Shown one piece after another: positions 16,602 through 61,010 of a stretch of DNA of 64,000 nucleotides; the first letter of the stretch is position 1; every line of letters begins with the position of its first letter. A program made the translations under genes and the position numbers. The notes beneath the pieces are model-generated. The model was not told where the DNA came from. It was given only the letters and a program-made list of their open reading frames with translations, and ran no database searches. Origin of the DNA: an uncultured Pseudomonadales bacterium. GTDB lineage: Bacteria; Patescibacteriota; Microgenomatia; UBA1400; PJMF01. Location: NCBI GenBank assembly GCA_964625685.1, contig CAZVBO010000002.1:55440-119439 (forward strand), read 5' to 3'.

Positions 16602-18056
16602 TTAAAACCACATCACGCTTTGATCCCGTTTCGGGCCCGTAGTCGCCATTAAAATTTTGACATTCAAACATTGTTGTAAGAATGCCAGATATTGTTGGGC
16701 TTCTTTTGGTAAATCTTTGGGTTTTGTAATGCCGGTAAGACTGGCACCATCCCAACTTGGTAATTCTAACCAAATGGGTTTCACATTATTTAAGAAGAGT
16801 TGATCAGGTTGATAACCCACTTCTTTACCATTTTTTTGATACCCAATACAGATTTTAATCGGTACATCAGGATAACTAATATCAAGATGGGTGACAACTA
16901 AATACTCAATTCGACCAATTTTCATTAAATATGACAACATGGGGATATCGACATGAATGATATCGCGAGGTCGCCCGGTGGTGGTGCCGTATTCATGAGC
17001 ATCATCTCGAATACGTTGTGCTAATTTACCCTTCATCTCACTGGGCAGCTTACGTGCTCCCACACTAGAATTATAAGTAGCTTTAGTGACAGCAGCTTTG
17101 AGGGAAATTAACTCAGGATCAATTATTCCTTGTGTTGAGGAAAAAATACCAGCCAACGTACAGTCGGAAGCAGTCACATCAGGATAGACCCCCCAGCGAA
17201 TATCCAATCCCATCGCTTGAGCCTTTTCAAACACAATCGGTGTATCTTTTTCCCAAGTTTTGTGAAGAAGTTCAGAGACAGGCTGAATAAATGGTTTCAA
17301 AACTTGACGAGCTTTTTCTAAACGATTAAGAAAGGTTTGTGGGGTGCCTACTTTGACCACACTGCCATCAATCCGAGCCACTTCAATTGTTTTGAGGTCT
17401 CCGCCCAAACCCTTAATCAAATCTCGATAGAGCAGATAGTGTTGGGTAAAAACTTCTTTCCAATTTGATTTTACAAAATCTCTCATTCGGAGAGGATGAC
17501 GGTAGGTAACATCGGCATAGGCCGGAGCGATCCCGCGTCCGGTGGAACCTTTAGAACCACTGGCCCGGGTTTTGAGGGCATTTTCATATGCTCGGTGAGT
17601 ATCTAGTGATAGTACCGCTAGTTCATCAATGATCAATTCAGCCGGAATTTTACCTTGGCAAGCTTGCTTGACGGACTCTAATTCGGTTACAAAATCTTCC
17701 GGATGTAGCACCATTTCTTTTCCAGAAATAACGGTACAACCCTTTTGAAGAATGCCAGCCCCAATTTGGTGAAGAGCGATTTTGGTGTCACCGACGGCTA
17801 CAGTGTGTCCTGCATTCGCTCCACCATTATCCCGATAATGAATCACTTTTTTTGATTTTGCTAAAAAAAGTGAAGTCAGTTCATCGGTAATACGGCCTTT
17901 GCCTTCATCTCCCAAAAATCCACCGACGACCGCAGCCGAATTCGGTCTCATTCCGGGTACTCGTAGGGGATTGGGTTTCAATTTTTGGGTAATGTTATCC
18001 AGCTCGCCTTTTTTATAGACTTGCTGGTAAATTTTTTTGACTTGGCTACTGGTCAT
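16602..18056 (-). CDS. purA: Adenylosuccinate synthetase
   Basis: GDEGKGRITD (P-loop-like GDEGKGK motif), GSTGRGIAPAY (GTTxRGIGPAY) and further GTP/IMP-site motifs; 484 aa, so somewhat longer than typical with insertions. Confidence 0.88.
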   Translation of the reverse strand: MTSSQVKKIYQQVYKKGELDNITQKLKPNPLRVPGMRPNSAAVVGGFLGDEGKGRITDELTSLFLAKSKKVIHYRDNGGANAGHTVAVGDTKIALHQIGAGILQKGCTVISGKEMVLHPEDFVTELESVKQACQGKIPAELIIDELAVLSLDTHRAYENALKTRASGSKGSTGRGIAPAYADVTYRHPLRMRDFVKSNWKEVFTQHYLLYRDLIKGLGGDLKTIEVARIDGSVVKVGTPQTFLNRLEKARQVLKPFIQPVSELLHKTWEKDTPIVFEKAQAMGLDIRWGVYPDVTASDCTLAGIFSSTQGIIDPELISLKAAVTKATYNSSVGARKLPSEMKGKLAQRIRDDAHEYGTTTGRPRDIIHVDIPMLSYLMKIGRIEYLVVTHLDISYPDVPIKICIGYQKNGKEVGYQPDQLFLNNVKPIWLELPSWDGASLTGITKPKDLPKEAQQYLAFLQQCLNVKILMATTGPKRDQSVMWF

Positions 18057-19538: not shown

Positions 19539-20306
19539 ATGACTGAATTAGATACTCGTACCATCTTTAGTCTTCCGTATATTTATCGGGTTTATGGAGA
19601 CTTTTTACAAAAAAGGCCATTATTGTTGTGGAATAATACACAGCCAAGCCGTGTTACCAGAATGATGCTCAATGAAGTAGGAGAATTGAATGGTGGAGAG
19701 AATACTGGCTTTTTTAGTCATCCTGAGAATAGAGAAGACTATCGTCAACAAGAAGTTTCGGATATTTTTATTTTAGCCTTTTCCATTTTTTTAGCTATGC
19801 GAGTGGAAGAGGATGAGTTGCCGGTAACTCGGATTATGGCTCAAGTCGCTTTTTTTGCAAAAGAATATCGGGTTAGTTTGGTCGATGTAGAACAATCTTT
19901 TACTGTGCCAGCTCCTTTTAATGATAATCAAGATGAAGTATTTCACCGACTCCAAAAACATATTAATGAGCTGGCATCGCCGTTAATAGAGTCAGGTAAT
20001 CTCAAATCAGAGTTTACTCTTAAGAATCTTGAGCAGGATGTCCTATTCTCTCATCTAGAAAAGATTATGGCATTATGTGTGGTGCTTCATGCCTCTATGG
20101 GGTTGCACTTTTCTCGAGCTATTTATGAAAAAATTATCCGGAATATTTTGAAGTATGATCCGAGAGATTTAGAACTTCCAGTTGATTTTGAACAAATGAG
20201 TCCGGAAAGACAGGAAGAAATATTCCAACAAACAATGACAAAGATTAGGCAAAAATGGACCGAAGATGACAATGAACAATTTTATCGGCAATATCAAGTA
20301 ACTTAG
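19539..20306 (+). CDS. Hypothetical protein (all-alpha; weak MazG/NTP-pyrophosphohydrolase-like flavour)
   Basis: 255-aa ORF; the segment MMLNEVGELNGGEN resembles EEAGEL-type MazG/HisE motifs only weakly; located between purB and tmk. Confidence 0.4.
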   Translation: MTELDTRTIFSLPYIYRVYGDFLQKRPLLLWNNTQPSRVTRMMLNEVGELNGGENTGFFSHPENREDYRQQEVSDIFILAFSIFLAMRVEEDELPVTRIMAQVAFFAKEYRVSLVDVEQSFTVPAPFNDNQDEVFHRLQKHINELASPLIESGNLKSEFTLKNLEQDVLFSHLEKIMALCVVLHASMGLHFSRAIYEKIIRNILKYDPRDLELPVDFEQMSPERQEEIFQQTMTKIRQKWTEDDNEQFYRQYQVT

Positions 20307-21780: not shown

Positions 21781-21902
21781 TTTTGGTTCTTGCATATCTC
21801 TTACTCAGGTTTTATCATGGGAATCCTAGTGCCAGTCACTAGGATTTTTTTTACCAGTCACTCAAATCATAAGTGCATTCAAGCACTTAGAATGTAATTA
21901 TT

Positions 21903-21928
21903 CCCGCGTCAGACGCGGGATTTTTTTT
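21903..21928 (+). terminator. Rho-independent terminator after the lipoprotein gene
   Basis: CCCGCGTCAGACGCGGG perfect 6-bp GC stem followed by T8. Confidence 0.75.
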
Positions 21929-21971: not shown

Positions 21972-23603
21972 ATGTCCACCTACCAAAAAGTTTCATCATA
22001 TGAGGGTCGAAAAGGAGAAATCAAAAAAGTGGTGTTGCTGTATTCAGGGGGACTTGATACTTCGGTGATGTTGAAGTGGATTCAAGATGAGTATGAGGCA
22101 GAGGTGATTGCCTTGACGATTGATATCGGCCAACAAGCAGACGATTTAGAAAAGATCCGTCAAAAAGCTTTAAAATTAGGGGCTATTAAAGCCTTAGTGA
22201 TTGATGCTAAAAAAGAATTTGCGTATCACTATCTAGCCAAAGGCATTAAAGCCAATGCCAGTTATCAAGGGAAATATCATTTGAGTACGCCGATGGGTCG
22301 GCCACTGCTTTCGAAAATTGCGGTAGATGTAGCCCGTGAATATGGGGCAGATACGATTGCACATGGGTGTACAGGCAAGGGGAACGATCAGGTTAGAATT
22401 GAGGGTTCAATTTTGACTTTAGCTCCAGAAATGAAAATCATCGCTCCAGTACGAGAGTGGAGTATGGGTCGAGATGAAGAGTTGGCTTATGCGAAGAAAA
22501 ACCATATTCCTGTAAAGCAAACCAAAGCTTCTCCCTATTCTTATGACGATAATATGTGGGGGGTGACCGGAGAAAGTGGTGAAATTGAAAATCCAGCTTT
22601 AATTCCGCCACTGAATAAAATTTTGCAAGTCTGCCGTTTAGTCGAAGATACTCCTGATAAACCACAATATATCAAACTCCGGTTTGTGAAAGGTTTACCA
22701 GTTGAAGTTGATGGCAAACCAATGGATTTAGTGGATGTTATTTTGCATTTAAATAAAGTAGGAGCTAAACATGGAGTGGGGGTGACGCATCATATTGAAG
22801 ATCGATTGGTGGGTTTGAAAGTTCGAGGGATGTATGAGGCCCCAGCGGCAGAGATTATCATTAATGCTCATTTTAACTTAGAAAAATATGTCTCCACTCG
22901 GGAAGAAAATGAGTTCAAATCTTTGGTAGATACTAAGTGGGCCTATGTTTGTTATGGGGCACTTTGGTATGAGCCGTTGATGGATGACCTGAATGCTTAT
23001 ATTGAGCAGGTCAATAAAAAAGTTTCAGGCTTGGTCACAGTTAAACTCTTTAAAGGTCAAGCCGAGGTAGTCGCAGTTGATACTGCCAATACTATCTTTG
23101 ATGAAAAACTGGCTACATTTATGAAGAATGATGCTTTCAACCAAAATGCTTCTCCTGGTTTTATTGAAATTTATACTCTTCAAATGCGTTTAGCCCAAAA
23201 TACGGAGCGGTATGCCTTACTCACAATTGGTGAAGAAAGAAATAAGAAAAAGTTTCTACCGTTAGTCAAAGATTTACAGGAATTGGGTTTTAAATTTTAC
23301 GCTACAGAGAATACTCACAAATTCTTGAAAAAGCATAGAATTCCGTCAATTCAAGTTCATAAAATGTATAAAAAGGTCTATCCTTCATTAGAAGATGTAT
23401 TGAAACAAAATTTGTTCGATTTAATAATTCATGTTCCATATGACAAACAATTTGAAGAGTCTAAAGAAGATATAGAAGTCATTCATCGTTGGGCAGTGAG
23501 AAATAATATTAAGATTGTGGATCAATTTGATATCGCTAAAAAGCTCGTCGATGAATTAAAAAAACGCTTAGTTATGAGAAAGAATGGGAATGGGAAAAAG
23601 TAA
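21972..23603 (+). CDS. argG: Argininosuccinate synthase fused to a C-terminal MGS-like (methylglyoxal-synthase-like) regulatory domain
   Basis: N-terminal VVLLYSGGLDTSVMLKWIQDEY...IALTIDIGQ is the ArgG PP-loop. The C-terminal ~130 aa (ALLTIGEERNKKKFLPLVKDLQELGFKFYATENTHKFLKKHRIPSIQV...DLIIHVPYD...AVRNNIKIV) follow the MGS-like pattern seen in CarB C-terminus / PurH N-terminus. Confidence 0.75.
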   Translation: MSTYQKVSSYEGRKGEIKKVVLLYSGGLDTSVMLKWIQDEYEAEVIALTIDIGQQADDLEKIRQKALKLGAIKALVIDAKKEFAYHYLAKGIKANASYQGKYHLSTPMGRPLLSKIAVDVAREYGADTIAHGCTGKGNDQVRIEGSILTLAPEMKIIAPVREWSMGRDEELAYAKKNHIPVKQTKASPYSYDDNMWGVTGESGEIENPALIPPLNKILQVCRLVEDTPDKPQYIKLRFVKGLPVEVDGKPMDLVDVILHLNKVGAKHGVGVTHHIEDRLVGLKVRGMYEAPAAEIIINAHFNLEKYVSTREENEFKSLVDTKWAYVCYGALWYEPLMDDLNAYIEQVNKKVSGLVTVKLFKGQAEVVAVDTANTIFDEKLATFMKNDAFNQNASPGFIEIYTLQMRLAQNTERYALLTIGEERNKKKFLPLVKDLQELGFKFYATENTHKFLKKHRIPSIQVHKMYKKVYPSLEDVLKQNLFDLIIHVPYDKQFEESKEDIEVIHRWAVRNNIKIVDQFDIAKKLVDELKKRLVMRKNGNGKK

Positions 23604-24588
23604 AATGCAAGGTTGGAATTTTAAACCACTTATTTTAGAGGCGATTTCACAGCACGGAGGATGGGTGAATGCTCATGCTCATGTAGATCGAGCTTTTACC
23701 ATCAATCCAAATAGTCTTGAACTCTATAAGAAGCACTCACTTCAGGAAAAGTGGGATTTAGTTGATGAAGTAAAGCAAAATGCTACTGAAGAAGATTACT
23801 ATCGAAGATTTTCTCAAGCAATTGAAGTCATGATCTCTCAGGGAGTAACCGTGTTGGGTTCTTTTGTGGACATTGATCCTGTATGTGAAGATCGAGCAAT
23901 TAAGGCAGGCATTCGAGCACGGGAACACTATCAAAAAGATATTCAAGTAAAGTTTGGAATTCAGACTTTAAAAGGAGTTATTGAACCATCAGCCCGGTAT
24001 TGGTTTGATAGAGGCAGTGAATTAGTAGATATCATCGGTGGCTTACCCAAACGTGATGAGAGAGATTATGGAAAGGGTAAAGAACATATGGAACTCTTAC
24101 TAAGAAGAGGAAAAGAGATGGGGAAATTAGTTCATGTTCATGTTGATCAATTTAATACTCCTGATGATAAAGAAACAGAATTATTATGTGATTTAACCGC
24201 TGAATATGGTATGCAAAATCGAGTAGTAGCCATTCATGGAATTTCTTTGGGAGCACATTCAAAAACGTACCGTCAAAAAGTCTACCGAAAAATGAAGAAA
24301 AATGGAGTGATGATTATTGCTTGTCCGGTTGCATGGATAGATTCAGCTCGAACTGAAAAAAAGTTGCCTACTCATAATTCTTTAACTCCTATTGATGAGC
24401 TCATCCCAGCAGGAGTGACAGTAGCACTAGGAACTGATAATATCTGTGATTATATGGTGCCTTTTTGTGATGGAGATATGTGGCAAGAACTGATGTTATT
24501 GGCCACGGGAAATCGATATGTTGAAATTGATCAACTCGTATCAATTGCGACCACCAATGGTCGAAAGGTTTTGGGTTTAGCGCCATGA
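23584..24588 (+). CDS. Amidohydrolase-superfamily protein, cytosine-deaminase (CodA)-like; a divergent dihydroorotase is the alternative
   Basis: Metal-ligand motif GWVNAHAHVDRAF (HxH) plus later HVHVD and His/Asp positions in the order seen in CodA; first gene of a block that continues pyrD-upp-pyrE-pyrF with overlapping junctions. Confidence 0.5.
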   Translation: MGMGKSKMQGWNFKPLILEAISQHGGWVNAHAHVDRAFTINPNSLELYKKHSLQEKWDLVDEVKQNATEEDYYRRFSQAIEVMISQGVTVLGSFVDIDPVCEDRAIKAGIRAREHYQKDIQVKFGIQTLKGVIEPSARYWFDRGSELVDIIGGLPKRDERDYGKGKEHMELLLRRGKEMGKLVHVHVDQFNTPDDKETELLCDLTAEYGMQNRVVAIHGISLGAHSKTYRQKVYRKMKKNGVMIIACPVAWIDSARTEKKLPTHNSLTPIDELIPAGVTVALGTDNICDYMVPFCDGDMWQELMLLATGNRYVEIDQLVSIATTNGRKVLGLAP

Positions 24589-25661
24589 AAGTGCCATTTT
24601 ATGATCCCACTCTTTCTTATGAAGATAATTTAGAGCAAGGACCTTTTGGTGAGTTTGCTGAAGTTGGGATGATTGAGAGACATGACTACAATCCTACTTA
24701 TTCATTTTTGGGTTCAAAAGTATATACCCCTTTCGGAATTCCAGCTGGACCATTAATTAATGCTAATTTTGTAAGTGCGGCTTTTAAAAAGGGCTTTGAC
24801 ATCTGTGTCTATAAAACTGTTCGTAGTCGGGCCTTACCATGTCATCCTCAGCCGAATGTATTAGCAGTTCAGGTTGAGGGTGATTTAACTTTAGAAAAAG
24901 CACAAGGGGAATTGATTGCCACTTCAGATTACACAGAACCGCTGTCTATTACGAACTCTTTTGGAGTTCCATCTTTGGAACCAGAACAATGGCAACCAGA
25001 TATGAAAAAAGCGGTTGAAGCAGCTGGTGAAGGGCAAGTCATGGTAGGAAGTTTTCAAGGTACTAAATCTGAATCAGGGAATCCAGAAGATTTAGTCACT
25101 GATTATGTTTTGGCAGCCCAACTGGTCAAAGAAACCGGAGCGAAAATTCTTGAAGCTAATTTAAGTTGCCCTAATGAAGGGACAGCCGACTTGTTGTGTT
25201 TTGATGTAGACAGAGTAGAGGTCATTGCTCGTAAAATTAAAGAAGAAATTGGGAATACGCCTTTGCTGATGAAGTTTGCCTATTTTGAGTCAAATGAGCA
25301 GTTAGAAAAGTTGGTGAAGCATCTTGGGCCAATTATCGATGGATTTTCGGCCATTAACACCATTCCGGCTGCTATTGTCAATAGAGAAGGAGATCAAGCA
25401 CTTCCAGGTGAAGGCAGACTCCGAAGTGGAGTGTGCGGATCCAGTATCCAATGGGCTGGTTTAGATATGGTAAAACGACTCAATCGATTGAGGAGTCACC
25501 ACGAAATGAAGTTTACTATTGTCGGTGTGGGTGGAGTGATGTCAGTCGATGCTTACAAAGCATATCGGCAGGCAGGAGCCGACGCCGTGATGAGTGCTAC
25601 GGGAGCGATGTGGCACCCAGATTTAGGAAGGAAAATCTTTGAAGATGAACACCGGCGATAA
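24585..25661 (+). CDS. pyrD: Dihydroorotate dehydrogenase-like (class 1 DHODH / DHPD family TIM-barrel flavoprotein)
   Basis: ANLSCPN motif, catalytic-loop cysteine region, C-terminal IVGVGGVMSVDAYKAYRQAGADAVMSATGAMWHP FMN-binding end; 358 aa. Confidence 0.7.
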   Translation: MKVPFYDPTLSYEDNLEQGPFGEFAEVGMIERHDYNPTYSFLGSKVYTPFGIPAGPLINANFVSAAFKKGFDICVYKTVRSRALPCHPQPNVLAVQVEGDLTLEKAQGELIATSDYTEPLSITNSFGVPSLEPEQWQPDMKKAVEAAGEGQVMVGSFQGTKSESGNPEDLVTDYVLAAQLVKETGAKILEANLSCPNEGTADLLCFDVDRVEVIARKIKEEIGNTPLLMKFAYFESNEQLEKLVKHLGPIIDGFSAINTIPAAIVNREGDQALPGEGRLRSGVCGSSIQWAGLDMVKRLNRLRSHHEMKFTIVGVGGVMSVDAYKAYRQAGADAVMSATGAMWHPDLGRKIFEDEHRR

Positions 25662-26283
25662 CCAAGTCCATGTAATTGACCATCCTTTTGTTCAGGATTC
25701 ATTAACACATTTGCGCAATAAAGACACAAAGTTGCAAAAATTTCGGCATCACTCCGATAAAATTTGTCAACTATTATTTGCTGAAGCCATTCGAGGTTCA
25801 GAGTTTAGTGAAATTGAGATTGAGACTCCCTTAACGACCATGAAATCTCCCAAGTTGGCTGATGAAATTATTGTGGTTCCGGTACTGCGTGCAGGTTTAG
25901 CCATGCTCTTTGGAGCCATACACTTGTTGCCGAAGTCCAAAGTAGGGTTCATTGGCTTACAGCGAGATGAAAATACGGCCATAGCGAGTGAATACTACTG
26001 TAAATTTCCCCCCATCCAAGAAAACAGTGTAGTGATTGTGACTGATCCGATGTTGGCCACTGGGGGATCATCTATTCATTTATTACGTAAAGTCAGTCAA
26101 CAGCACCCCAAAGAAATGCGGTTAGTTTGTGTTTTGGCCGCTCCTGAAGGAATTGAAGCCGTTCACCAAGAATTTCCTGATGTTCAAATTTTTACCGCTG
26201 CCATTGATCAAAAGTTGAATGCCCAAAAATATATAGTCCCAGGACTTGGCGACTATGGTGATCGCTACTTTGGAACAGAATAA
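25639..26283 (+). CDS. upp: Uracil phosphoribosyltransferase
   Basis: VVIVTDPMLATGGS PRPP-binding motif and C-terminal YIVPGLGDYGDRYFGT, diagnostic of UPRTase. Confidence 0.85.
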   Translation: MKMNTGDNQVHVIDHPFVQDSLTHLRNKDTKLQKFRHHSDKICQLLFAEAIRGSEFSEIEIETPLTTMKSPKLADEIIVVPVLRAGLAMLFGAIHLLPKSKVGFIGLQRDENTAIASEYYCKFPPIQENSVVIVTDPMLATGGSSIHLLRKVSQQHPKEMRLVCVLAAPEGIEAVHQEFPDVQIFTAAIDQKLNAQKYIVPGLGDYGDRYFGTE

Positions 26284-26305: not shown

Positions 26306-26950
26306 ATGAAAAATTACCAACAGTCAGTAGCTAAGGCGTTACTTGATATTCAAGCAGTCCGATTTACTCCTCAAGAACCTGTTCGATTTAAATCAGGTTT
26401 GTTGTCACCAATTTATTTAGATAATCGCATTTTCCCTTTTTATCCAGTGGCATGGAGAAGAGTTTTAGCTGGATTCAAACAGATGATTGAATCAGAAAAA
26501 ATCCAATTTGATTTGATTGCTGGAGTGGAGTCAGCTGGTATTCCTCACAGCGCTGCACTAGGCTTTTCTTTAAAAAAACCTTCTGTTTTTGTTCGTAAAG
26601 CTCTGAAGGAACATGGAACTAAAAAAAGGGTTGAAGGAGGAAATGTTAAAGGAAAACAAGTTGTTTTGATTGAAGATCATATTACTACTGGCAGTAGTAG
26701 TCTAGCCGGTGTAGATGCTTTACGTACGGAAGGTGCAAAAGTTAAACATTGTTTAGCCATTACCAGTTACGAATTTGAAGTTGCGGATACTTTGTTTTCT
26801 AAATCAAAAGTGAAGCTTCATACCCTTACTAATTTTTCAATTATTTTAAATGAAGCTTTAAAACGAAAACTCTTTTCACTAGAAGAAAAGAGGATGATTG
26901 AAGATTGGTTTAAAGATAGTAACAAATGGGAAAAAAAGTATTTTGGATAA
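26306..26950 (+). CDS. pyrE: Orotate phosphoribosyltransferase
   Basis: KSGLLSPIYLDNR and QVVLIEDHITTGSS PRTase type-I motif; 214 aa. Confidence 0.8.
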   Translation: MKNYQQSVAKALLDIQAVRFTPQEPVRFKSGLLSPIYLDNRIFPFYPVAWRRVLAGFKQMIESEKIQFDLIAGVESAGIPHSAALGFSLKKPSVFVRKALKEHGTKKRVEGGNVKGKQVVLIEDHITTGSSSLAGVDALRTEGAKVKHCLAITSYEFEVADTLFSKSKVKLHTLTNFSIILNEALKRKLFSLEEKRMIEDWFKDSNKWEKKYFG

Positions 26951-26956
26951 ATCCTT

Positions 26957-27769
26957 ATGACTACTTTTCAACAAAAACTTGATCAAATTCAAACACAGTC
27001 AAATTCTTTGGTCTGTGTTGGCCTCGACAGTGACATCGCTAAATTACCATCGCGATTTCTAAAAGCAGAACATCCTCAATTTGAGTTTAATAAATGGATT
27101 ATTGATCAAACTCATGACTTAGTCTGTGCTTATAAACCGAATTCAGCTTTTTATGAAGCCCGAGGAGCAGCCGGATTGATCGAGTTGGAGATGACGCTTG
27201 AGTATTTGCACCACAACTATTCCGAAGTTATTACGATTGATGATGCTAAGCGGGCAGATATTGGGAATACCAACAATGGGTATGTTCAGGCTATTTTTGA
27301 CCAACTGGGTTTTGATGCCGTTACGCTACATCCCTACTTAGGTCAGGAAGCGCTGCAACCATTTTTAGATCGAGCGGATAAAGGGTGTATTATCTTGTGT
27401 CGAACCAGCAATCCTGGAGCAGGGGAGTTCCAGGATTTAGCAGTGGGAAAAACCAAAAAACCACTCTGGCAGACTATAGCCGAACAGGTGAACCAGACGT
27501 GGAATCAGCACCAAAACTGTTTGCTCGTTGTTGGCGCTACTTATCCACAAGAAATGAAGGTAATTCGTCAACTGGTGGGAGAAATGACATTTTTAGTCCC
27601 AGGAATTGGAGCTCAGGGAGGCGATATTGAGGCTGTGCTGGCTGTTGGCTTAAATTCGCAAAAGAGGGGGCTGATTATTAATTCCGCTCGGGCCATTATC
27701 TTTGCGGATGATCCCCGTCAAGAAACGCAAAAACTTCGCGATGAGATTAATAACTTCCGGAAAGTGTAA
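26957..27769 (+). CDS. pyrF: Orotidine-5'-phosphate decarboxylase (long / type 2 form)
   Basis: LVCVGLDSD (active-site Asp-x-Lys region in the long form), DDAKRADIGNT; 270 aa. Confidence 0.8.
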   Translation: MTTFQQKLDQIQTQSNSLVCVGLDSDIAKLPSRFLKAEHPQFEFNKWIIDQTHDLVCAYKPNSAFYEARGAAGLIELEMTLEYLHHNYSEVITIDDAKRADIGNTNNGYVQAIFDQLGFDAVTLHPYLGQEALQPFLDRADKGCIILCRTSNPGAGEFQDLAVGKTKKPLWQTIAEQVNQTWNQHQNCLLVVGATYPQEMKVIRQLVGEMTFLVPGIGAQGGDIEAVLAVGLNSQKRGLIINSARAIIFADDPRQETQKLRDEINNFRKV

Positions 27770-53011: not shown

Positions 53012-55408
53012 ATGGACAAATCACAACTATCTGAACGAGACATATGTACCAAATTTATTACGCCAGCAGTACAGCAGGCCGGTTGGGACGTTGATTCACA
53101 AATCCGTGAAGAAGTCAGTTTCACAAAGGGTCGCATCATTGTTAGAGATAAGGTGATTGCCAGAGGTAAACCAAAAAGAGCAGATTACATTCTTTACTAT
53201 AAAGAAAATTTTCCAATTGCCTTGATTGAAGCCAAGGACAACAAGCACTCAGTGGGTGATGGCATGCAACAGGGCCTTGAGTATGCTGAAACCTTGGATA
53301 TTCCTTTTGTGTTTAGCTCAAATGGAGATGCTTTCATAGCTCATGACAGAACTGGTATGTCAGCTGATACGGAAAAGCAGATTCGACTAGATGAATTCCC
53401 AAGCCCTCAAGAGCTGTATCAGCGATACTTGCGTTGGAAAAACATTGATATGGTCGAGGAGCAGATTCTGACCACAGACTACTACTATGACGCTCGTGGC
53501 AAATCACCTCGTTATTATCAACAAATTGCCATCAATAGAACTATTGAAGCAGTGGCCAATGATCAAAAGCGAATCATGTTGGTTATGGCCACCGGTACAG
53601 GGAAAACATACACAGCCTTTCAGATTATGTGGCGTTTGTGGAAGTCAGGGGCCAAAAAGAGAATTTTGTTCTTAGCGGACCGCAACATCCTTATTGATCA
53701 AGCAAAGACCAATGATTTCATTCCATTTGGTGACAAAATGACCAAGATCAGTAATCGCCAGATTGATAAGTCATATGAACTCTACCTTTCCTTGTATCAA
53801 GCTGTGACGGGCAATGAGGAAGAAAAGAACATCTACAAACAATTCAGTCCTGATTTCTTTGATTTGATTATTGTGGATGAGTGTCATCGAGGTAGTGCCA
53901 GAGCAGATTCAGCGTGGAGAGAGATTCTTGAATACTTTGACCATGCTACCCAAATCGGTTTGACTGCCACCCCAAAAGAAACAAAAGATGTCTCAAATAT
54001 TGATTACTTTGGTGAGCCGGTTTACACCTATTCACTCAAGCAAGGTATTGAGGATGGCTTTTTGGCACCTTATAAAGTGGTCCGTTACACCATTGATCGT
54101 GATGTTGAAGGCTACCGTCCAGAGCCTCATAAAAGAGATATTTATGGGGAAGAAGTTCCTGATGAGGTGTATTATGGCCATGATTTTGATCGCAAGCTGA
54201 TTATCGATGACCGAACCAAACTGGTAGCTAAGAAAGTAACTGAATACTTAGAAGCTAATGAAGCATTTGCCAAGACAATCGTGTTCTGTATCGACATCGA
54301 ACATGCCGAAAGAATGAGAAGAGCTTTGATCAATGAAAACCAAGAACGCTACCAAGAGAACTCTAAATACATCATGCGAATTACTGGTGACAATGAGCAG
54401 GGAAAAGCAGAATTAGACGGTTTTATTGATCCTGAGAGCAAATATCCAGTCATTGTGACTACTTCTAAGTTATTGACCACAGGTGTTGATGCTCAAACTT
54501 GTAAGTTAGTGGTCCTTGATGCTCCGATCAAATCAATGACCGAGTTCAAACAAATTGTAGGACGTGGTACGAGACTTCGTGAGGATCATGACAAGTTCTA
54601 CTTCACAATTATGGATTTCCGTAATGCTACGGATAACTTTGCAGATCCTGATTTTGATGGCGAGCCAGTGCAAATTTATGAACCAGTTTTGCCAGCAAAA
54701 ATTGAAGGGGTCCAACCCGTCAAAACACAGTCTGTTTCAACCGATGAACTAGATATTTCAGAAGTTTTGTATGATCCACAGCGTGTTGATGCCATGACAC
54801 TGAGAGATTCAGCCGGTGAAGTGGGGTATCGAACTGGTGGAGTTCACAAATACCACCTCAATGATGTAGAAGTGATGGTCTCAAGTGAGAAAATTCAATT
54901 TTATGATGAGGGTGGCAAACTTGTTTCAGAGTCACTGGAAGAGTATTCAGCCAAAAACTTGAAGAGGCTCTATCCTGAGCTAGCCGATTTCCAACGAGCT
55001 TGGGCGGAAGCTGAAAACAAAACGGTCTTGATTCACAGTTTAGTTGAGAATGGCTTTTTTATTGATGAGCTTCTAGAAAAAGTTGATCCCGCATTAGATA
55101 TTTTTGATTTGGTTCTGAGCGTTGCGTATAAGCAAGAAGCAAGCATGACTCGGTCCCAAAGAGCTCAGCAAGTACGAGGAAGTGAATTTTTCAATCAATA
55201 TCAAGATACACAAAAAGAGCTATTGCTTGATCTTTTGAGTGTGTATGAACAAGAAGGTATTGTGGCAATTGAGGACGTTGAATTGCTTAGGGTTGAACCA
55301 TTCACCAAGTATGGATCACCGGTTGAGATACTTGGGACCATTTTTTCTGGAAGAAATGAATATTTATTAGCATTAGCAGATATGAAGAAGCACTTATACA
55401 AAGGTTAG
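53012..55408 (+). CDS. hsdR: Type I restriction enzyme R subunit (endonuclease / SF2 translocase), compact form
   Basis: N-terminal HsdR nuclease domain (SERDICTKFITPAVQQAGW..., PD-(D/E)xK: ADYILY...IALIEAKD); helicase motifs I MATGTGKTYTAF, II VDECHRGS, later motifs (TATP, QIVGRGTRL). 798 aa, so it lacks a long C-terminal helical domain. Confidence 0.88.
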   Translation: MDKSQLSERDICTKFITPAVQQAGWDVDSQIREEVSFTKGRIIVRDKVIARGKPKRADYILYYKENFPIALIEAKDNKHSVGDGMQQGLEYAETLDIPFVFSSNGDAFIAHDRTGMSADTEKQIRLDEFPSPQELYQRYLRWKNIDMVEEQILTTDYYYDARGKSPRYYQQIAINRTIEAVANDQKRIMLVMATGTGKTYTAFQIMWRLWKSGAKKRILFLADRNILIDQAKTNDFIPFGDKMTKISNRQIDKSYELYLSLYQAVTGNEEEKNIYKQFSPDFFDLIIVDECHRGSARADSAWREILEYFDHATQIGLTATPKETKDVSNIDYFGEPVYTYSLKQGIEDGFLAPYKVVRYTIDRDVEGYRPEPHKRDIYGEEVPDEVYYGHDFDRKLIIDDRTKLVAKKVTEYLEANEAFAKTIVFCIDIEHAERMRRALINENQERYQENSKYIMRITGDNEQGKAELDGFIDPESKYPVIVTTSKLLTTGVDAQTCKLVVLDAPIKSMTEFKQIVGRGTRLREDHDKFYFTIMDFRNATDNFADPDFDGEPVQIYEPVLPAKIEGVQPVKTQSVSTDELDISEVLYDPQRVDAMTLRDSAGEVGYRTGGVHKYHLNDVEVMVSSEKIQFYDEGGKLVSESLEEYSAKNLKRLYPELADFQRAWAEAENKTVLIHSLVENGFFIDELLEKVDPALDIFDLVLSVAYKQEASMTRSQRAQQVRGSEFFNQYQDTQKELLLDLLSVYEQEGIVAIEDVELLRVEPFTKYGSPVEILGTIFSGRNEYLLALADMKKHLYKG

Positions 55409-55411
55409 ATT

Positions 55412-56845
55412 ATGGCACTTTCAACAAAGATCAAAACGATTCAAAACATCATGCGTCAAGACAGTGGTGTCGATGGTGATGCTCAGAGAATTTCGCAATT
55501 AGGCTGGTTGATATTCCTCAAGATTTTTGACGATCGTGAGCGAGAGCTTGAGATCATGAAAGGGGATTATGAATCACCAATGCCAGAAGAGTTGAGATGG
55601 CGAAATTGGGCATTGGACGAAGAAGGTATTACTGGTGATGAGTTATTGAACTTTGTAAACAATGACCTTTTCCCTAAGTTGAAGAACCTTGAAGTCAAAT
55701 CTACCGATGATAAAAAGGCACTTATTTTACGGTCCGTGTTTGAAGATGCTTTCAACTACATGAAGTCAGGGACCTTACTTCGTCAGGTAATCAACGAGCT
55801 GAATGATATTGACTTTGCTAGTTCAAATGACAGACATGTATTCAATGATGTGTATGAAAAAATCCTCAAGGACTTGCAGAGTGCCGGAAATGCCGGTGAG
55901 TTTTACACCCCTCGTGCAGTTACTCAATTTATTGTGGACATGGTGGATCCAAAGCTTGGCGAAAAAGTATTTGACCCCGCTTGTGGTACCGGTGGTTTTT
56001 TGACATCGGTAATTGAGCATGTTCGCAAGAATGAAGTCAAAACGGGTGAAGACAACGAAGCTTTGGCAAATTCAATATATGCAGTAGAAAAGAAACCACT
56101 GCCTCATTTGCTTTGTACAACCAATATGATTCTTCATGGTATTGATGATCCAAGCAATATTGTCAGAGGTAATTCATTGGTTCGTCCTTTGCGTGATTAC
56201 ACCGAAGATGATAGGGTCCATGTGATCGTGACTAATCCACCGTTTGGTGGGACCGAAGAAGATGGAATTGAACTTGGCTTTCCAAAGAAGTTCCAAACAA
56301 GGGAAACTGCTGATTTGTTTTTGGTCCTGATTATTCATTTACTCAAAGAGAATGGTCGAGTGGGTATAGTTTTGCCAGATGGTTCTTTATCTGGTGAAGG
56401 TGTCAAACAGAGAATCAGAGAGCATTTGCTCAATAAATGTAATTTACACACGATTATTCGTTTGCCAAACAGCGTCTTCAAGCCATATGCCACTGTTAGT
56501 ACTAATTTATTGTTTTTCTCAAAGGGTGAGCCAACCAAAGAAGTTTGGTATTACGAGCACCAACTTCCAGACGGATACAAAAGCTATTCAAAGACAAAAC
56601 CAATTCAACTAAGTGAATTTGATGTTATCAAAAAATGGTGGAGCAACAGAGAAGAAGGTCCTTTTTCATGGAAGGTTGGCATCAAAGATATTGAAGAAAA
56701 AGGTTTCAACTTAGATATCAAGAATCCAAATATCAAACGAAAGAAAATTGAACAATCACCAGAAGAAATCATTTCAGAGATTCGAGAGAATCAGAGTCAA
56801 ATTGATCAATTGTTGAGTGAGATTGAGGAACTAATCAAATCATGA
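55412..56845 (+). CDS. hsdM: Type I restriction-modification N6-adenine DNA methyltransferase subunit
   Basis: HsdM N-terminal domain (LGWLIFLKIFDDRE), SAM motif I DPACGTGGFL, catalytic NPPFGG (VTNPPFGGTEE). Confidence 0.9.
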   Translation: MALSTKIKTIQNIMRQDSGVDGDAQRISQLGWLIFLKIFDDRERELEIMKGDYESPMPEELRWRNWALDEEGITGDELLNFVNNDLFPKLKNLEVKSTDDKKALILRSVFEDAFNYMKSGTLLRQVINELNDIDFASSNDRHVFNDVYEKILKDLQSAGNAGEFYTPRAVTQFIVDMVDPKLGEKVFDPACGTGGFLTSVIEHVRKNEVKTGEDNEALANSIYAVEKKPLPHLLCTTNMILHGIDDPSNIVRGNSLVRPLRDYTEDDRVHVIVTNPPFGGTEEDGIELGFPKKFQTRETADLFLVLIIHLLKENGRVGIVLPDGSLSGEGVKQRIREHLLNKCNLHTIIRLPNSVFKPYATVSTNLLFFSKGEPTKEVWYYEHQLPDGYKSYSKTKPIQLSEFDVIKKWWSNREEGPFSWKVGIKDIEEKGFNLDIKNPNIKRKKIEQSPEEIISEIRENQSQIDQLLSEIEELIKS

Positions 56846-58032
56846 GCTATACATTAGATGAACTATGCCATATAGAAAAAGGCAAAATTGGCATTACAAA
56901 AGCCGTTGATGGTGAATATCCATTAGTTACCACTGGTGAAGATTTTGGAACACACAATGAATACCATTTTGAAGGTCCTGCTGTATGTGTGCCACTAGTT
57001 TCTTCAACTGGCCACGGACACGCTAGCATCAAGAGATTGCACTATATTGAAGGAAAGTTTGCTTGTGGAAATATTTTGGCAGTACTGATTCCAAAGGATC
57101 CAAGTAAGTTGTCAGCGAAGTTTTTATACACCTATCTTACTGTTCACAAACAGGAAAAATTGGTGAGAAAAATGAAGGGGGCGGCTAATGTATCTTTGAC
57201 TTTGACAAATTTGAAAAAAGTGAAAATTGAGGACTTGCCTTCGCTGAAAGAACAGGAAAAAATATCTAGCATTTATTCGTCTATTGATAAATTTTCTTTG
57301 GAATTTTTAAAAAAAATTGAATTCAACAAAACAAGAACTAGTACTCTAAAAAATAAGGTTATTGATTTGGCTGTGTTTGGCCATTTTTTACCATATTCAA
57401 ATAATGATTATTCATTTTCAGATGATTTTGATCACTTAGTTCCAAACAAGTGGTCATTTTCTAGCTTAGAGGATATAGCAGAATTCATTGATTATAGAGG
57501 CAAGACTCCAAAAAAAGTTGATACTGGTATTAGGTTGGTCACTGCTAAAAATGTAAAGCTCGGATATTTTTCATATGAGCCAGCAGAATATATGGAATCT
57601 CATGCTTATGATGATTGGATGACAAGAGGGTTTCCTCAAAAGAATGATGTTTTATTTACCACAGAGGCCCCATTAGCTAATACATGTTTATACCCGTTTG
57701 AGCACACAGAGAAAATTGCTTTAGCACAGAGAATCATTACATTGCACCCATATAATGATAGTGATTATATAAAAAGCAGATATTTGTTTTATTGCTTATT
57801 AGCACCTTCAATAAGAAGAAAAATTCAGGCAAAAGCAACTGGTACGGCCGCTTTAGGAATTAGATCTAGTAGGCTAAAAAAAATTATTTTTCCAGTACCT
57901 TCTCAAGATGAGATGCTGAAAATTGTGAATTTTTTGGAAGTTTTCTTTGAGTTCATTGAACAAATTGGATCAAAGGTTTCAGACAATGAAGAAATCATCG
58001 ATAAACTAAAAAATCAATCTTACAAAGGATAG
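56842..58032 (+). CDS. hsdS: Type I R-M specificity subunit with two target-recognition domains
   Basis: Central conserved repeat LKKVKIEDLPSLKEQEKISSIYSSIDKF and C-terminal IIFPVPSQDEMLKIVNFLEVFFEFIEQI flank two variable TRDs; 4-nt overlap with hsdM. Confidence 0.85.
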   Translation: MSYTLDELCHIEKGKIGITKAVDGEYPLVTTGEDFGTHNEYHFEGPAVCVPLVSSTGHGHASIKRLHYIEGKFACGNILAVLIPKDPSKLSAKFLYTYLTVHKQEKLVRKMKGAANVSLTLTNLKKVKIEDLPSLKEQEKISSIYSSIDKFSLEFLKKIEFNKTRTSTLKNKVIDLAVFGHFLPYSNNDYSFSDDFDHLVPNKWSFSSLEDIAEFIDYRGKTPKKVDTGIRLVTAKNVKLGYFSYEPAEYMESHAYDDWMTRGFPQKNDVLFTTEAPLANTCLYPFEHTEKIALAQRIITLHPYNDSDYIKSRYLFYCLLAPSIRRKIQAKATGTAALGIRSSRLKKIIFPVPSQDEMLKIVNFLEVFFEFIEQIGSKVSDNEEIIDKLKNQSYKG

Positions 58033-58040: not shown

Positions 58041-61010
58041 ATGAAATCTGATTACTTCACCCCTGACGGCTATCTATCAGCTCAAAAAGTTCGAGATGTG
58101 CTCAAGAACGTTGAGTATGAGGGTAAAAAATTATCAGAGGAAAAGGTGGGGGACATAGTTGAACAATTTTGGTTTCAGGATTACTACTCCAATTTTATTT
58201 GTATCCCAGACGTTTTTGAGTTCCTTCAAGAGTATTTAGAAGAGTATGGGCCAGAAGTAAAGAGAATCGATTTCTATCGATACCACTTTTCAAAGGTTGT
58301 TACTGACGATAAAAAAAAGTCCAGCTTAGAGCTAATCTCTGTTGATTTTGAAACAAAGCAACGCAATGACATAAATCAAGACCTTTTGCAGGAAGTTCTT
58401 GATAAACATGAGATCACTAATATTTCATTTGAGTGGTTACTTGAGAAGAAGTTCATTTGGCAAATAGAAGATAAATTTGAATGGCGTCACCACACATATA
58501 CTGAGTTCTTTGCTTCTGAATACATCCTCAAGCAAAAAGAGCCGATCAAAGTTGTTGATGAGTTAGCAGTTTTGAATGTTGAAGCTGACAACTCAAAAAA
58601 CATCAAGCCTTCGTGGCATGGTGTGATCAAGTTTTTACTTCAAAGCGAAATTTCCCATGATGCGTTGAACTGGCTTATTGGATTGATCAAAGAAAACCCA
58701 CTCAATTTGAGTGAAGATCTGACAAACATCATCAGCATGTTTGCTCCTCACGATTTAGATGATTCTGAAAAATCAGAGGTTTTCAATATTATTTATGACA
58801 CCTATCAAGAAAGAATGGTTTGGTTACCGGTCTGGGCAAGAACAGGGTTGGCTAAGTTTTTTACAACCACACAGTTAGAGAAATTTGAAAAGCACTTAGA
58901 AGCTACTGATGATGAGGTCGAAACATATGTCCATCGTGGCAACGTGGTGGCAGTAGTGGGTGAATTGATTGAGATAGGAATTATTAGTGATAAAAAACAA
59001 ATTGGCTTATGGAAGGATAGATTTGTTGAGTACGCCTTGGATGAAAATGATAATGGGGTACTGCAAAGGCACAGTCTTCATGCTCTTAGGCAGTTCAAAG
59101 AAAAAGATGGCCAACTGATCCTCAAGCTAAGAAAAAACCTGAATTCGTCAGATACTTTGGTTCGAGATGCATTTATTCAGTACTGCTCAGAGTCGGCCCC
59201 AAATACAAAAGAGGCAATAGACGTTTTTGCTGATGCATATGGCGAAGGAATGTCTCGTGTGTATAGCAGACACGGTATGTATGAAATTTCTTCATTGGAA
59301 GGCTTCACATATCTAATCGACAAACTAATAGACAATAGCAATTTCTTACATGAGTTTATTGATTCTGAATCAATCTTTGATGGTGAAAGAAAAGATCCCG
59401 ATGCAGAGTTTGTTCAAAAGATTATTGACTCGGCGAGGTCAAATACAGGTTTTGCTAAAAAGTTGAGCGATCTATTGAAGGAGGTCATAAAGAATGACGA
59501 AATATACCAGGTAGAACGTTCATATTTTGTTAGAAATATTAGTTTATTTCTTTTTGATGACCGCGACAGAGGTATTGAGTTTATCAAAGACGTAATTAGT
59601 GAAGAAGACATTACAAGGCATTTTGTTCATAACTTTTTTGACATACTTCCGGAAGTTTTGACGTCTGAGAATTGGCAAGAAATATTTGAAATTTTAGAAG
59701 CAACGGATATTGAATATGTTGATCGCCACCTTGAGAGAGTTTCGTATGGTCTTAGGTTTAGAAAAGAAGCTGGTGGTAAAGAACTATTTGAAGAGATTGC
59801 CCAAAAAAGAGGGTATAAGATCGAGAAACCAAGAGATTATGAGAAAGAAGAGAAAAAGAGGCAGGATGAGCTCTACAAAGAATTCAAATTCAAGATAGAA
59901 CCTGACAAGGGTCGGTTCATGGGAGATGTCTTTGAATATTACCTCAATAATGCAGAGGTTATTGAAGAGAGATGGTCTGATTATGAAGAAGAGCGAATGC
60001 TGTTCTTGGCTTACGAAGATGGTATCAAGAGGTTAGACCCAAGAGATTTTAGAGTCACATTTGAAGAGAAGAAAAAACGAGGAGGACGTTTTAGGTGGTC
60101 CAGTCAGGCCGCTTTTTATGGCGAAATGATCAAGGTTGTTCAGCGGATGAGACCTGATTTACTGGAAGAACCAGCTGTAAGACAACACATTATCGATTTC
60201 ACTCCGTATTGCTATTCTGATGACTACAAAGTGGTCCATGAGCTAATTACTGAGATTGAACCAAGTGATATTAGTTGGCTCGTTGAGCTCTACAAAAATG
60301 AAGATGATGATCGCCGGTATTTGGTCCCTGAATCATTTATTTATTTTCTTGAGAGCTTATTGGACCACAAACAAAATGTCACTAGTGCCATTCCAACACT
60401 TAGAACATTTATTCTTGATGAAAACATCTCGGATTGGGTAAGTCGAAGTGCTTTGGAGTTGCTAGGCAAAATTGAAGCATCAAGTAAGGATTACCAAGAT
60501 TTTCTTCAAGAGGTATTTGAAAAAACTGAATACGACAAAGTAAAAGAGGAAGCAAATAGGCAATTGATTGTTTTATTTGAAGAAGAAGAAGCGATTCAAT
60601 GGAGATTTGAGCAAATCAAAGCAAAAGTTTCTCCATTCAAGAGAGAAGAAGGTGTTCACTCGGTTGGTGAACTGGAAAGTGAGCTTGATTCAAGATCATT
60701 TATATCACCTCTTTGTGAGGTAAAGACAGAAAAAATACTCAAAGATTTTTTGAAGCTTTTTGAATATGTATTAGTTAAGTATGAAACGGATGAGGGATAT
60801 TCTGCCTACCTTGAATATGTTTGGGCAGCAATTATTAGATTTGTTTATAAATTTGACGAAGAACAGTTCTTTGACTTATACGCTAGATTGAAAAAATATG
60901 TTGAGGAGTCAGAGATTTCTAGTAAGAAGAGGCCTTACCTTGAGTATTCATTGCAGAAAACCAAAACAGATTTTATAAATAAAATGGCACTTGAAGGGAG
61001 AAATGAGTAG
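58041..61010 (+). CDS. Large (989 aa) all-alpha / HEAT-like repeat protein of unknown function, tightly coupled downstream of hsdS
   Basis: No Walker A/B. Possible N-terminal PD-(D/E)xK-like strand motifs (CIPD ... ISVDFETK). Segment FEWRHHTYTEFFASEYIL resembles the F-x-H-x-S/T-x-x-E-F-L-A-A winged-helix signature that follows STAND NTPase cores. PBS-lyase/HEAT-like repeats (e.g. VLQRHSLHALRQF, DWVSRSALELLGKI). Confidence 0.55.
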   Translation: MKSDYFTPDGYLSAQKVRDVLKNVEYEGKKLSEEKVGDIVEQFWFQDYYSNFICIPDVFEFLQEYLEEYGPEVKRIDFYRYHFSKVVTDDKKKSSLELISVDFETKQRNDINQDLLQEVLDKHEITNISFEWLLEKKFIWQIEDKFEWRHHTYTEFFASEYILKQKEPIKVVDELAVLNVEADNSKNIKPSWHGVIKFLLQSEISHDALNWLIGLIKENPLNLSEDLTNIISMFAPHDLDDSEKSEVFNIIYDTYQERMVWLPVWARTGLAKFFTTTQLEKFEKHLEATDDEVETYVHRGNVVAVVGELIEIGIISDKKQIGLWKDRFVEYALDENDNGVLQRHSLHALRQFKEKDGQLILKLRKNLNSSDTLVRDAFIQYCSESAPNTKEAIDVFADAYGEGMSRVYSRHGMYEISSLEGFTYLIDKLIDNSNFLHEFIDSESIFDGERKDPDAEFVQKIIDSARSNTGFAKKLSDLLKEVIKNDEIYQVERSYFVRNISLFLFDDRDRGIEFIKDVISEEDITRHFVHNFFDILPEVLTSENWQEIFEILEATDIEYVDRHLERVSYGLRFRKEAGGKELFEEIAQKRGYKIEKPRDYEKEEKKRQDELYKEFKFKIEPDKGRFMGDVFEYYLNNAEVIEERWSDYEEERMLFLAYEDGIKRLDPRDFRVTFEEKKKRGGRFRWSSQAAFYGEMIKVVQRMRPDLLEEPAVRQHIIDFTPYCYSDDYKVVHELITEIEPSDISWLVELYKNEDDDRRYLVPESFIYFLESLLDHKQNVTSAIPTLRTFILDENISDWVSRSALELLGKIEASSKDYQDFLQEVFEKTEYDKVKEEANRQLIVLFEEEEAIQWRFEQIKAKVSPFKREEGVHSVGELESELDSRSFISPLCEVKTEKILKDFLKLFEYVLVKYETDEGYSAYLEYVWAAIIRFVYKFDEEQFFDLYARLKKYVEESEISSKKRPYLEYSLQKTKTDFINKMALEGRNE

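Follow-up and report, generated by a model that had tools for sequence, protein, structure and literature searches.

An argininosuccinate synthase with a CarB-type MGS-like domain at the head of a pyrimidine operon in Patescibacteria

Introduction

In the classical pyrimidine pathway, carbamoyl-phosphate synthetase (CarAB), aspartate transcarbamoylase (PyrB) and dihydroorotase (PyrC) act ahead of dihydroorotate dehydrogenase (DHODH; PyrD), orotate phosphoribosyltransferase (PyrE) and orotidine-5'-phosphate decarboxylase (PyrF). CarB, the large subunit of the synthetase, ends in an allosteric domain of the MGS-like family, in which K954 and T974 contact the phosphate of inosine monophosphate (IMP) in the crystal structure. 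Two further residues of this domain, T977 and K993, are crucial for inhibition by uridine monophosphate (UMP) and for UMP binding (review, PMC6245113). Here, we describe an argininosuccinate synthase (ArgG) with a domain of the same family at its C-terminus (hereafter ArgG-MGS). The gene lies in a 64,000-nucleotide stretch of DNA (hereafter the window) from an uncultured bacterium deposited as Pseudomonadales and placed by GTDB in the Patescibacteriota (GenBank assembly GCA_964625685.1, contig CAZVBO010000002.1, positions 55,440 to 119,439). The main interest of the gene is its context, as the first cistron of a pyrimidine operon without CarAB, PyrB and PyrC, rather than the fusion itself.

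The same early enzymes are at issue in a well-studied pathogen. Haemophilus influenzae is without three early enzymes of pyrimidine synthesis, according to a 2026 review, and survives in pyrimidine-restricted sites such as cerebrospinal fluid; the review calls its pyrimidine source unclear and offers pathway intermediates as one possibility (PMC13328217). As described below, the gene next to argG-MGS in the window encodes an amidohydrolase (AH) that is also found in H. influenzae and its relatives.

Results

A canonical synthase core with an MGS-like tail

The gene and its two parts are located as follows.

21972..23603, + strand: ArgG-MGS fusion gene, 543 aa (open reading frame call, Pfam, NCBIfam, PDB sequence search)
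22026..23192, + strand: argininosuccinate synthase core, residues 19–407 (Pfam, NCBIfam, PP-loop YSGGLDTS, kept ligands)
23208..23576, + strand: MGS-like, CarB-allosteric-type domain, residues 413–535 (AlphaFold model; Pfam match at 428–515)

The interval 21972–23603 (+) is an exact ATG-to-stop open reading frame (ORF) of 543 amino acids, and the strings that a first-pass annotation of the letters alone had quoted from it (LLTIGEERNKKKFLPLVKDLQELGFKFYATENTHKFL, DLIIHVPYD and IKIV) are all present. Pfam placed an Arginosuc_synth domain at residues 19–180 (E 7.8e-68) and an Arginosuc_syn_C domain at residues 189–407 (E 2.6e-65). Against NCBIfam (PRK00509 / TIGR00032) the core scored 503.7 bits over model positions 3–398 of 401, with an equivalog cutoff of 334, and 460 bits against a second cutoff of 268.2. 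A PDB sequence search aligned residues 19–412 end to end with Thermus thermophilus ArgG (1J1Z; E 4e-96, 41% identity). The PP-loop YSGGLDTS (motif SGGxDTS) lies at residues 24–31, and the GKGNDQ aspartate motif is retained. For the substrate ligands we used the UniProt/HAMAP site list of the Thermus enzyme, whose residue identities agree with the Thermus sequence. Nine of the 11 ligands are kept; citrulline and aspartate would be bound by Y102, T134, N138, D139, R142, S190, E276 and Y288 of the window protein, which correspond to Thermus Y84, T116, N120, D121, R124, S173, E258 and Y270; the changed positions are Thermus S89 (Pro in the window) and S182 (Thr), both of which are Ala in the Mycobacterium tuberculosis enzyme. 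Among 43 fusion homologues, the substrate-ligand residues are invariant or nearly so. Because these ligands are kept, the core should be catalytically canonical and make argininosuccinate from citrulline, aspartate and ATP.

The first-pass annotation had claimed that an MGS-like tail follows this core, and profile searches upheld it, assigning the tail to the MGS/CarB family rather than to the oligomerisation helix of ArgG or to another fold. Pfam matched MGS (PF02142) at residues 428–515 (E 6.2e-13; 49.1 bits against a gathering score of 24.1; profile positions 2–92 of 94), NCBIfam aligned residues 414–533 to positions 936–1050 of the carbamoyl-phosphate synthase large subunit, and the closest PDB sequence match was the allosteric domain of human CPS1 (2yvq, E 1.6e-6). 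An AlphaFold model showed residues 413–535 as an alpha/beta domain (predicted local distance difference test score, pLDDT, of 85–92) with five predicted strands at 413–419, 440–445, 459–463, 484–488 and 514–516 and helices in between. The pLDDT of the full model was 73, with residues 394–396, which precede the last ArgG helix, below 50, so that the geometry between the two domains is of low confidence. By Pfam, NCBIfam, PDB search and model, the tail is a member of the MGS-like/CarB allosteric-domain family. Among 1.84 billion representative sequences, its relatives were C-terminal ends of either ArgG or CarB, mostly as fragments. The CarB C-termini of Patescibacteria (26–34% identity, E 1e-15 to 1e-21) resemble it more than E. 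coli CarB does.

To compare ligand pockets, we aligned 12 fusion tails with residues 928–1073 of E. coli CarB. The sole columns invariant across the tails and CarB were K954, T974, T977, L981, K993, P999, D1025 and A1033. In a second comparison, of 81 distinct fusion tails that are 37–68% identical to the window tail, the equivalents of the CarB phosphate-pocket residues K954, T974 and K993 were each kept in 81/81 and that of T977 in 80/81, the single exception being Ser. The equivalent of the ribose contact N1015 was kept in 66 of these 81 tails, and that of T1017 was Pro in 74. Judged from these alignments, a phosphate-ligand pocket has clearly been preserved by selection across the fusion tails. 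That its four residues persist in tails only 37–68% identical to the window tail speaks for a functional ligand site.

In three metagenomic loci, short sequences that stand alone, between AH and PyrD or beside PyrD, also match the MGS/CarB C-terminal domain (L125 5822–6184, L154 4736–5539 and L143 9451–9813; homologous loci are referred to here by L numbers). These suggest that the domain is also a separate small protein in some metagenomic pyrimidine operons.

Spread of the fusion

The first-pass annotation had called an ArgG-MGS fusion an unusual way to control argininosuccinate synthesis; the fusion is not rare. It is found in more than 120 clusters at 73% identity or above. The best 120 database matches are all 490–560 aa long with the same three Pfam domains and 72–100% identity; they come from Pacebacteria, Woesebacteria or 'Patescibacteria group' and are annotated just as 'argininosuccinate synthase'. 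A scan with the junction and tail confirmed the fusion in 366 metagenomic stretches. ArgG-MGS is the standard form in many Patescibacteria, and its architecture is already visible in precomputed Pfam annotations. Full-text literature searches found no description of an ArgG-MGS fusion, nor of a conversion of argininosuccinate to dihydroorotate. As a sequence feature the fusion is a variant of a known enzyme; the pathway to which it points would be new.

Several metagenome-assembled genomes (MAGs) with the Patescibacteria-type operon described below were deposited as 'uncultured Gammaproteobacteria' or 'Pseudomonadales' (L007, L011, L012, L014, L016, L040, L043 and L078), and one as 'Casimicrobiaceae' (L045). 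These taxon labels are probably mislabels.

ArgG-MGS heads a pyrimidine operon

The fusion gene is followed on the same strand by five genes.

21902..21920, + strand: terminator-like hairpin of 8 pairs, 6 of them GC, followed by T8; closes the upstream gene
23605..24588, + strand: amidohydrolase (AH), 327 aa (NCBIfam PRK06886 'hypothetical protein', 507 bits)
24585..25661, + strand: divergent DHODH-like protein, 358 aa, with the catalytic-Cys motif NLSCPN (Pfam, NCBIfam, alignment)
25639..26283, + strand: uracil phosphoribosyltransferase (Upp)
26306..26950, + strand: phosphoribosyltransferase at the position of PyrE
26957..27769, + strand: PyrF, last gene of the operon

Because the hairpin ends the upstream gene, ArgG-MGS and the genes after it form a transcription unit of their own. 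The order is ArgG-MGS, AH, DHODH, Upp, PyrE, PyrF, and the six genes are separated by gaps or overlaps of 1–22 nt: AH starts 1 nt past the ArgG-MGS stop or, from an alternative ATG at 23584, within argG, and the DHODH start overlaps the AH stop by 4 nt. The DHODH-like protein matched PF01180 with 49.8 bits against 27, and its NLSCPN (NxSCPN) motif aligns with that of class-1 enzymes; it fell below every NCBIfam equivalog cutoff and is for that reason a divergent member of class 1.

Searching the whole 64-kb window by tblastn for ArgH, ornithine transcarbamoylase (OTC), CarA, CarB, PyrB and PyrC returned none of them, the sole match being a weak one of the CarA amidotransferase domain to guaA. 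The earlier remark that no other arg genes are nearby agrees with this absence of ArgH and OTC. Its companion, that the gene sits among nucleotide-metabolism genes, was also right, as far as it went; it overlooked that argG-MGS is the first cistron of a pyrimidine operon without CarAB, PyrB and PyrC. Since the usual first three enzymes are missing from the operon, ArgG-MGS might feed a new route from citrulline to pyrimidines.

The amidohydrolase resembles AtzC and cytosine deaminase

By sequence, AH is closest among solved structures to cytosine deaminase (E 1e-20) and AtzC (E 1e-15). Its structural model consists of the barrel only (pLDDT 89.6) and best matches the folds of 5-methylcytosine/cytosine deaminase (TM score 0.84) and AtzC (TM 0.80), followed by imidazolonepropionase, isocytosine deaminase and triazine hydrolases. 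No dihydroorotase appeared among its 50 best PDB fold matches or among its NCBIfam models. The family keeps the mononuclear metal ligands H24, H26, H179 and D278 together with the catalytic His211. Asn279, invariant in the family, occupies the position of Asp314 in the cytosine deaminase CodA and matches Asn304 of AtzC. On the strength of the model and these residues, AH is predicted to be a mononuclear, barrel-only enzyme of the cytosine-deaminase/AtzC-like type.

Neither of two familiar assignments fits. As a cytosine deaminase, AH is ruled out by Gln182 and Asn279 and by its low scores against the NCBIfam cytosine-deaminase models (78–90 bits against cutoffs of 403–483). As a dihydroorotase, it is ruled out by motifs, score cutoffs and fold ranking; nor is it simply 'the' dihydroorotase of its cluster, because true short dihydroorotases coexist with AH (e.g. 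in L012 and L016). The nearest solved relatives hydrolyse an exocyclic C–N bond of a six-membered N-heterocycle, and AtzC in doing so expels an alkylamine rather than ammonia.

AH travels with ArgG-MGS and DHODH

We surveyed the linkage from both ends. Starting from AH, we found a relative in 485 of 185,579 species genomes and looked at the best 80 of these, which are Patescibacteria MAGs and Pasteurellaceae; ArgG-MGS lay within 3 kb of AH in 17 of the 20 Patescibacteria sources. Starting from the ArgG-MGS tail, we examined 80 metagenomic fusion loci. AH was present in 64, immediately downstream on the same strand in 48, and was 38–75% identical to the window AH, a range that marks the sample as diverse. 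The gene directly after AH encoded a DHODH in 29 loci, and in many of these the AH stop overlaps the DHODH start, as it does in the window; nine more loci end too early to show the next gene. This DHODH was of the window type in 18 loci and a canonical PyrD in 11, and the latter point to dihydroorotate as the AH product. One locus departs from the usual order, with a window-type DHODH and PyrE directly after ArgG-MGS and no AH between them (L116 5112–8559). A 471-aa protein that looked like an MGS–AH fusion (P0122) proved to be a gene-calling artefact, the tail and AH lying in different frames on L092.

Most clusters have no ArgH, OTC, PyrB or CarAB within 8–10 kb, and CarAB, PyrB or PyrC came within 8 kb in just 2 of the 64 metagenomic AH loci. 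ArgH is near the fusion in L016, L118, L123, L147 and L165 alone, and neither in the window nor in most related loci. In L008 it is ArgH, not ArgG, that stands beside AH. Given this and the ArgG-MGS linkage, in nearly all loci of the candidate phyla radiation (CPR) that we examined AH travels with an argininosuccinate-making enzyme, and usually also with a dihydroorotate-consuming one.

Six of the 80 metagenomic loci, and likewise L011, L015, L016, L017 and L020, contain a gene resembling DDAH/arginine dihydrolase together with ArgG-MGS and AH. It encodes 270 aa and scores 248 bits against NF045659, under the cutoff of 300 (e.g. L016 11875–12687); in L016 it adjoins a transporter of the EamA family. 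The encoded enzyme could supply citrulline, made from arginine or methylarginine.

AH in Pasteurellaceae

Practically all Pasteurellaceae have an AH that is 63–66% identical to that of the window, including H. influenzae, Aggregatibacter actinomycetemcomitans, Pasteurella multocida, Mannheimia and Actinobacillus pleuropneumoniae. In these bacteria it is a stand-alone gene, with pyrE 2–4 kb off in 12 of 63 loci.

Upstream of the Pasteurellaceae AH start, at a distance of about 100–130 nt, there are two conserved inverted repeats (e.g. in L024, L052, L067 and L074; and in L022, L025, L031 and L041). The first reads AATGTTAT...N24...ATAACATT and the second TCAATG-N6-8-CATTGA; by eye, neither could be assigned to an ArgR box or a PurR box. 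The repeats could serve as operators or as upstream terminators.

A proposed route from citrulline to pyrimidines

We propose a pyrimidine route in which ArgG-MGS is the nucleotide-regulated entry and which circumvents carbamoyl-phosphate synthetase, aspartate transcarbamoylase and dihydroorotase, a reading of the sequences to which we give an even chance. In a first step, ArgG-MGS would use ATP to couple citrulline, through its ureido carbon, to the amino group of aspartate, yielding argininosuccinate. In a second, AH would cleave the bond between the guanidino carbon and the delta-nitrogen of ornithine, releasing dihydroorotate and ornithine. Argininosuccinate cyclises readily to anhydrides, and the substrate of AH could be either argininosuccinate itself or its six-membered cyclic anhydride. 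The latter would be a dihydroorotate with an N-alkyl-imino group at C2, the C2 oxygen being replaced by the delta-nitrogen of ornithine. The chemistry would be of the AtzC/cytosine-deaminase type, with a metal-bound hydroxide attacking C2 and ornithine leaving. Because AH would yield dihydroorotate from argininosuccinate, the route would need neither carbamoyl phosphate nor aspartate transcarbamoylase nor dihydroorotase. The dihydroorotate made by AH would be the substrate of the next gene product of the operon, and DHODH, PyrE and PyrF would carry it to UMP. Through the MGS domain, a nucleotide monophosphate would throttle the ArgG step; UMP is the simplest candidate, and IMP is perhaps another.

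Citrulline could be made from arginine by the DDAH/arginine-dihydrolase-like enzyme of some clusters or be taken from the host, and argininosuccinate could alternatively arise from ArgH running backwards. Where classical genes coexist, the two routes would run in parallel, one building pyrimidines de novo from bicarbonate and the other salvaging the carbamoyl group of arginine or citrulline. We tentatively extend the proposal to a route via argininosuccinate and a PRK06886-type amidohydrolase that would operate in many Patescibacteria and in Pasteurellaceae including H. influenzae, the MGS domain having been transplanted to ArgG in Patescibacteria for feedback; we hold this wider version with less than even confidence.

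Such a route would explain the two-way linkage of ArgG and AH, the adjacency of AH and DHODH (canonical PyrD included), and the usual absence of CarAB, PyrB and PyrC. It would likewise explain why genes that form citrulline or argininosuccinate keep this company without ArgH, why AH is kept together with pyrD, pyrE and pyrF in Pasteurellaceae, and why ArgG has acquired the regulatory domain of the enzyme that opens the classical pathway.

Other features of the window

The ArgG-MGS operon is part of an unusually dense island of nucleotide-metabolism genes at 10953–36771, nearly all on one strand. The island encodes dCMP deaminase, ThyA, dUTPase, DHFR, a PurA-like protein, PurB, Tmk, the ArgG-MGS operon, two further phosphoribosyltransferases, GuaA, a GNAT protein, a deoxynucleoside kinase, an HD hydrolase and SHMT; L004 shows a similar arrangement of nucleotide genes. 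The adenylosuccinate-synthetase homologue (16602–18056, − strand), beside PurB, is long: an N-terminal extension of about 40 aa brings it to 484 aa. It may be an ordinary PurA or a PurZ-like enzyme. Near it, a 255-aa ORF (19539–20306, + strand) has no significant Pfam match (best 15.1 bits against a cutoff of 25). The window also encodes MreB/C, PBP2, DprA, TopA, ribosomal protein S2 and CysRS, and it is a piece of a cellular CPR chromosome; MreB/C, PBP2, TopA, S2 and CysRS, together with close homologues that are all from Patescibacteria, rule out that the nucleotide island derives from a phage or a giant virus. A complete type I restriction-modification system (HsdR, HsdM, HsdS) lies at 53012–58032, followed by a 989-aa protein (58041–61010) with a weak HEAT-repeat match alone. 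An Rfam scan found no RNA element, and a promoter scan did no better than on shuffled sequence.

Discussion

Several observations weigh against the proposed route. In AH itself, the position of the catalytic Glu217 of CodA is taken by Gln182, which is invariant in the family, and we found no precedent in the literature for the reaction that AH would have to catalyse. In the tail of the window protein, the ribose-contact position Asn1015 of CarB is His, so the effector need not be UMP. The absence counts for pyrB and pyrC cover the loci examined and the 64-kb window. Classical genes (CarAB and/or PyrB, dihydroorotase) do stand beside ArgG-MGS and AH in six loci, including 2 of the 64 metagenomic ones; in L012, L016, L018 and L043 they comprise CarA, full-length CarB, PyrB, a short dihydroorotase and PyrD, and the dihydroorotase is genuine (pyrC_multi, 255 bits). 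We considered and dropped the idea that ArgG-MGS and AH always replace CarAB, PyrB and PyrC, since these four genomic loci hold the complete classical set alongside them; the pair is not always a replacement of the early steps. In 12 of the 80 fusion loci, AH is missing although there is room for it. Among fusions without AH, two are accompanied by ArgH (L118 and L123) and two by CarAB/PyrB/PyrC (L169 and L170), pairings that are as expected of an ordinary arginine enzyme. Finally, the literature treats H. influenzae as a uracil auxotroph, and if that auxotrophy holds with citrulline in the medium, the route is at best insufficient in this species.

Some of these points feed the most serious alternative, which we nevertheless judge unlikely. 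ArgG-MGS might be an ordinary enzyme that serves arginine synthesis or recycling alone and whose partner ArgH is encoded elsewhere, with an MGS domain through which pyrimidine or purine nucleotides balance arginine and pyrimidine fluxes; the pyr neighbourhood would then stem from a common draw on carbamoyl phosphate and aspartate, and AH would have an unrelated pyrimidine role, for example as a non-orthologous dihydroorotase or as a salvage deaminase feeding Upp. The fully canonical ArgG core fits this alternative, as does the presence of ArgH next to the fusion in the five loci named above and of CarAB, PyrB and PyrC next to it in L012, L016, L018, L043, L169 and L170. A upp gene does lie within the window operon, and AH sits ahead of PyrD, the usual place of PyrC. 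The alternative is harder to square with the majority of clusters, which have none of ArgH, OTC, PyrB and CarAB close by, and with the loci that hold a DDAH-like gene without ArgH (L011, L015, L017 and L020), where making argininosuccinate would be a dead end or part of a futile cycle. A dihydroorotase role for AH is at odds with its retention even beside a true dihydroorotase, with fold neighbours that are mononuclear deaminases and AtzC and include no dihydroorotases, and with its presence in Pasteurellaceae, where a dihydroorotase would be of no use without PyrB. A salvage deaminase of the cytosine type meets the scores far under the cutoffs and the loss of both Glu217 and Asp314.

It is improbable, in our judgement, that AH belongs instead to the arginine side, either as a non-orthologous arginine (guanidino) deiminase that gives citrulline to ArgG, and in Pasteurellaceae also to the OTC/carbamate-kinase pair, or as a repair enzyme that reopens the cyclic anhydrides into which argininosuccinate turns spontaneously, with ArgG-MGS acting as a regulated arginine/citrulline enzyme and the adjacency of ArgG and pyr genes being secondary. 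Hydrolytic deamination of amidines and guanidines is typical of this amidohydrolase clade, and both the tight linkage of AH to ArgG and its stand-alone position in Pasteurellaceae would suit such a role. The co-occurring DDAH/arginine-dihydrolase-like gene, however, would already make citrulline, and a path from arginine through citrulline to argininosuccinate without ArgH has no product. The DHODH directly after AH in 29 loci, and PyrE and PyrF further along the operon, would be left unexplained. It is very improbable that the MGS tail serves structure or oligomerisation alone, without ligand-dependent regulation: the low-confidence interdomain geometry of the model would allow it, but a phosphate pocket that is invariant but for one Thr-to-Ser change in such divergent tails is hard to explain without ligand binding.

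The fusion is a clear case of a regulatory module moving between enzymes, from the effector end of CarB onto ArgG. If the proposed route is real, it would be a new way to build the pyrimidine ring, with citrulline or arginine as the carbamoyl donor, and would explain why pyrD, pyrE and pyrF are kept without the early enzymes in genome-reduced Patescibacteria and in Pasteurellaceae. It would give a function to a widespread family of 'hypothetical' amidohydrolases, and would change metabolic reconstructions of CPR bacteria, in which ArgG is now read as a stray arginine gene. For H. influenzae, it would offer a testable answer to the question of pyrimidine supply in pyrimidine-poor niches such as cerebrospinal fluid (PMC13328217), and could point to a pathogen-specific drug target.

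Like type 1 argininosuccinate synthases (EC 6.3.4.5; Thermus 1J1Z, M. tuberculosis 4U7J), ArgG-MGS has the PP-loop, the GKGNDQ motif and the citrulline ligands; unlike them, it carries about 130 extra C-terminal residues that form the MGS domain, and it heads a pyrimidine operon, usually without argH alongside. With the allosteric domain of CarB and CPS1 its tail shares the Pfam family, the best NCBIfam and PDB matches and the residues of the IMP/UMP phosphate pocket, and in both settings the domain is appended to the C-terminus of an ATP-using enzyme through which nitrogen and carbon are committed to the arginine/pyrimidine branch. The scaffolds are unrelated, an ATP-grasp in CarB and CPS1 and an N-type ATP pyrophosphatase in ArgG-MGS. 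Within the domain, T1017 of CarB is replaced by Pro in most fusion tails and N1015 by His in the window, and the CarB residues that complete the ornithine site sit in a domain that ArgG-MGS does not have.

AtzC (N-isopropylammelide isopropylaminohydrolase) and CodA are, like AH, mononuclear barrels of subtype III with the HxH, His, His, Asp ligand set, and their folds match at TM 0.80–0.85. AH also has the AtzC-like Asp–Asn pair, and the removal of an alkylamine from a six-membered ring by AtzC is the type of reaction that we propose for AH. It differs in size, with 327 aa against about 400–430 aa in AtzC and CodA, whose extra domain it lacks, in the Gln at the Glu217 position of CodA, and in not keeping the FxQ substrate motif; identity to the two enzymes is just 20–25%. 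Of the AtzC pocket (His219, Lys65, Gln160, Asn304 and Trp309), AH shares only the Asp–Asn pair, at about 20% identity. The classical pyrimidine pathway, finally, has its last three steps encoded in the ArgG-MGS operon too, and in both routes aspartate would supply N1 and C4–C6 of the ring. In the proposed route, ArgG-MGS and AH would stand in place of the first three enzymes, which most clusters lack, and C2 and N3 would derive from the ureido group of citrulline instead of from carbamoyl phosphate.

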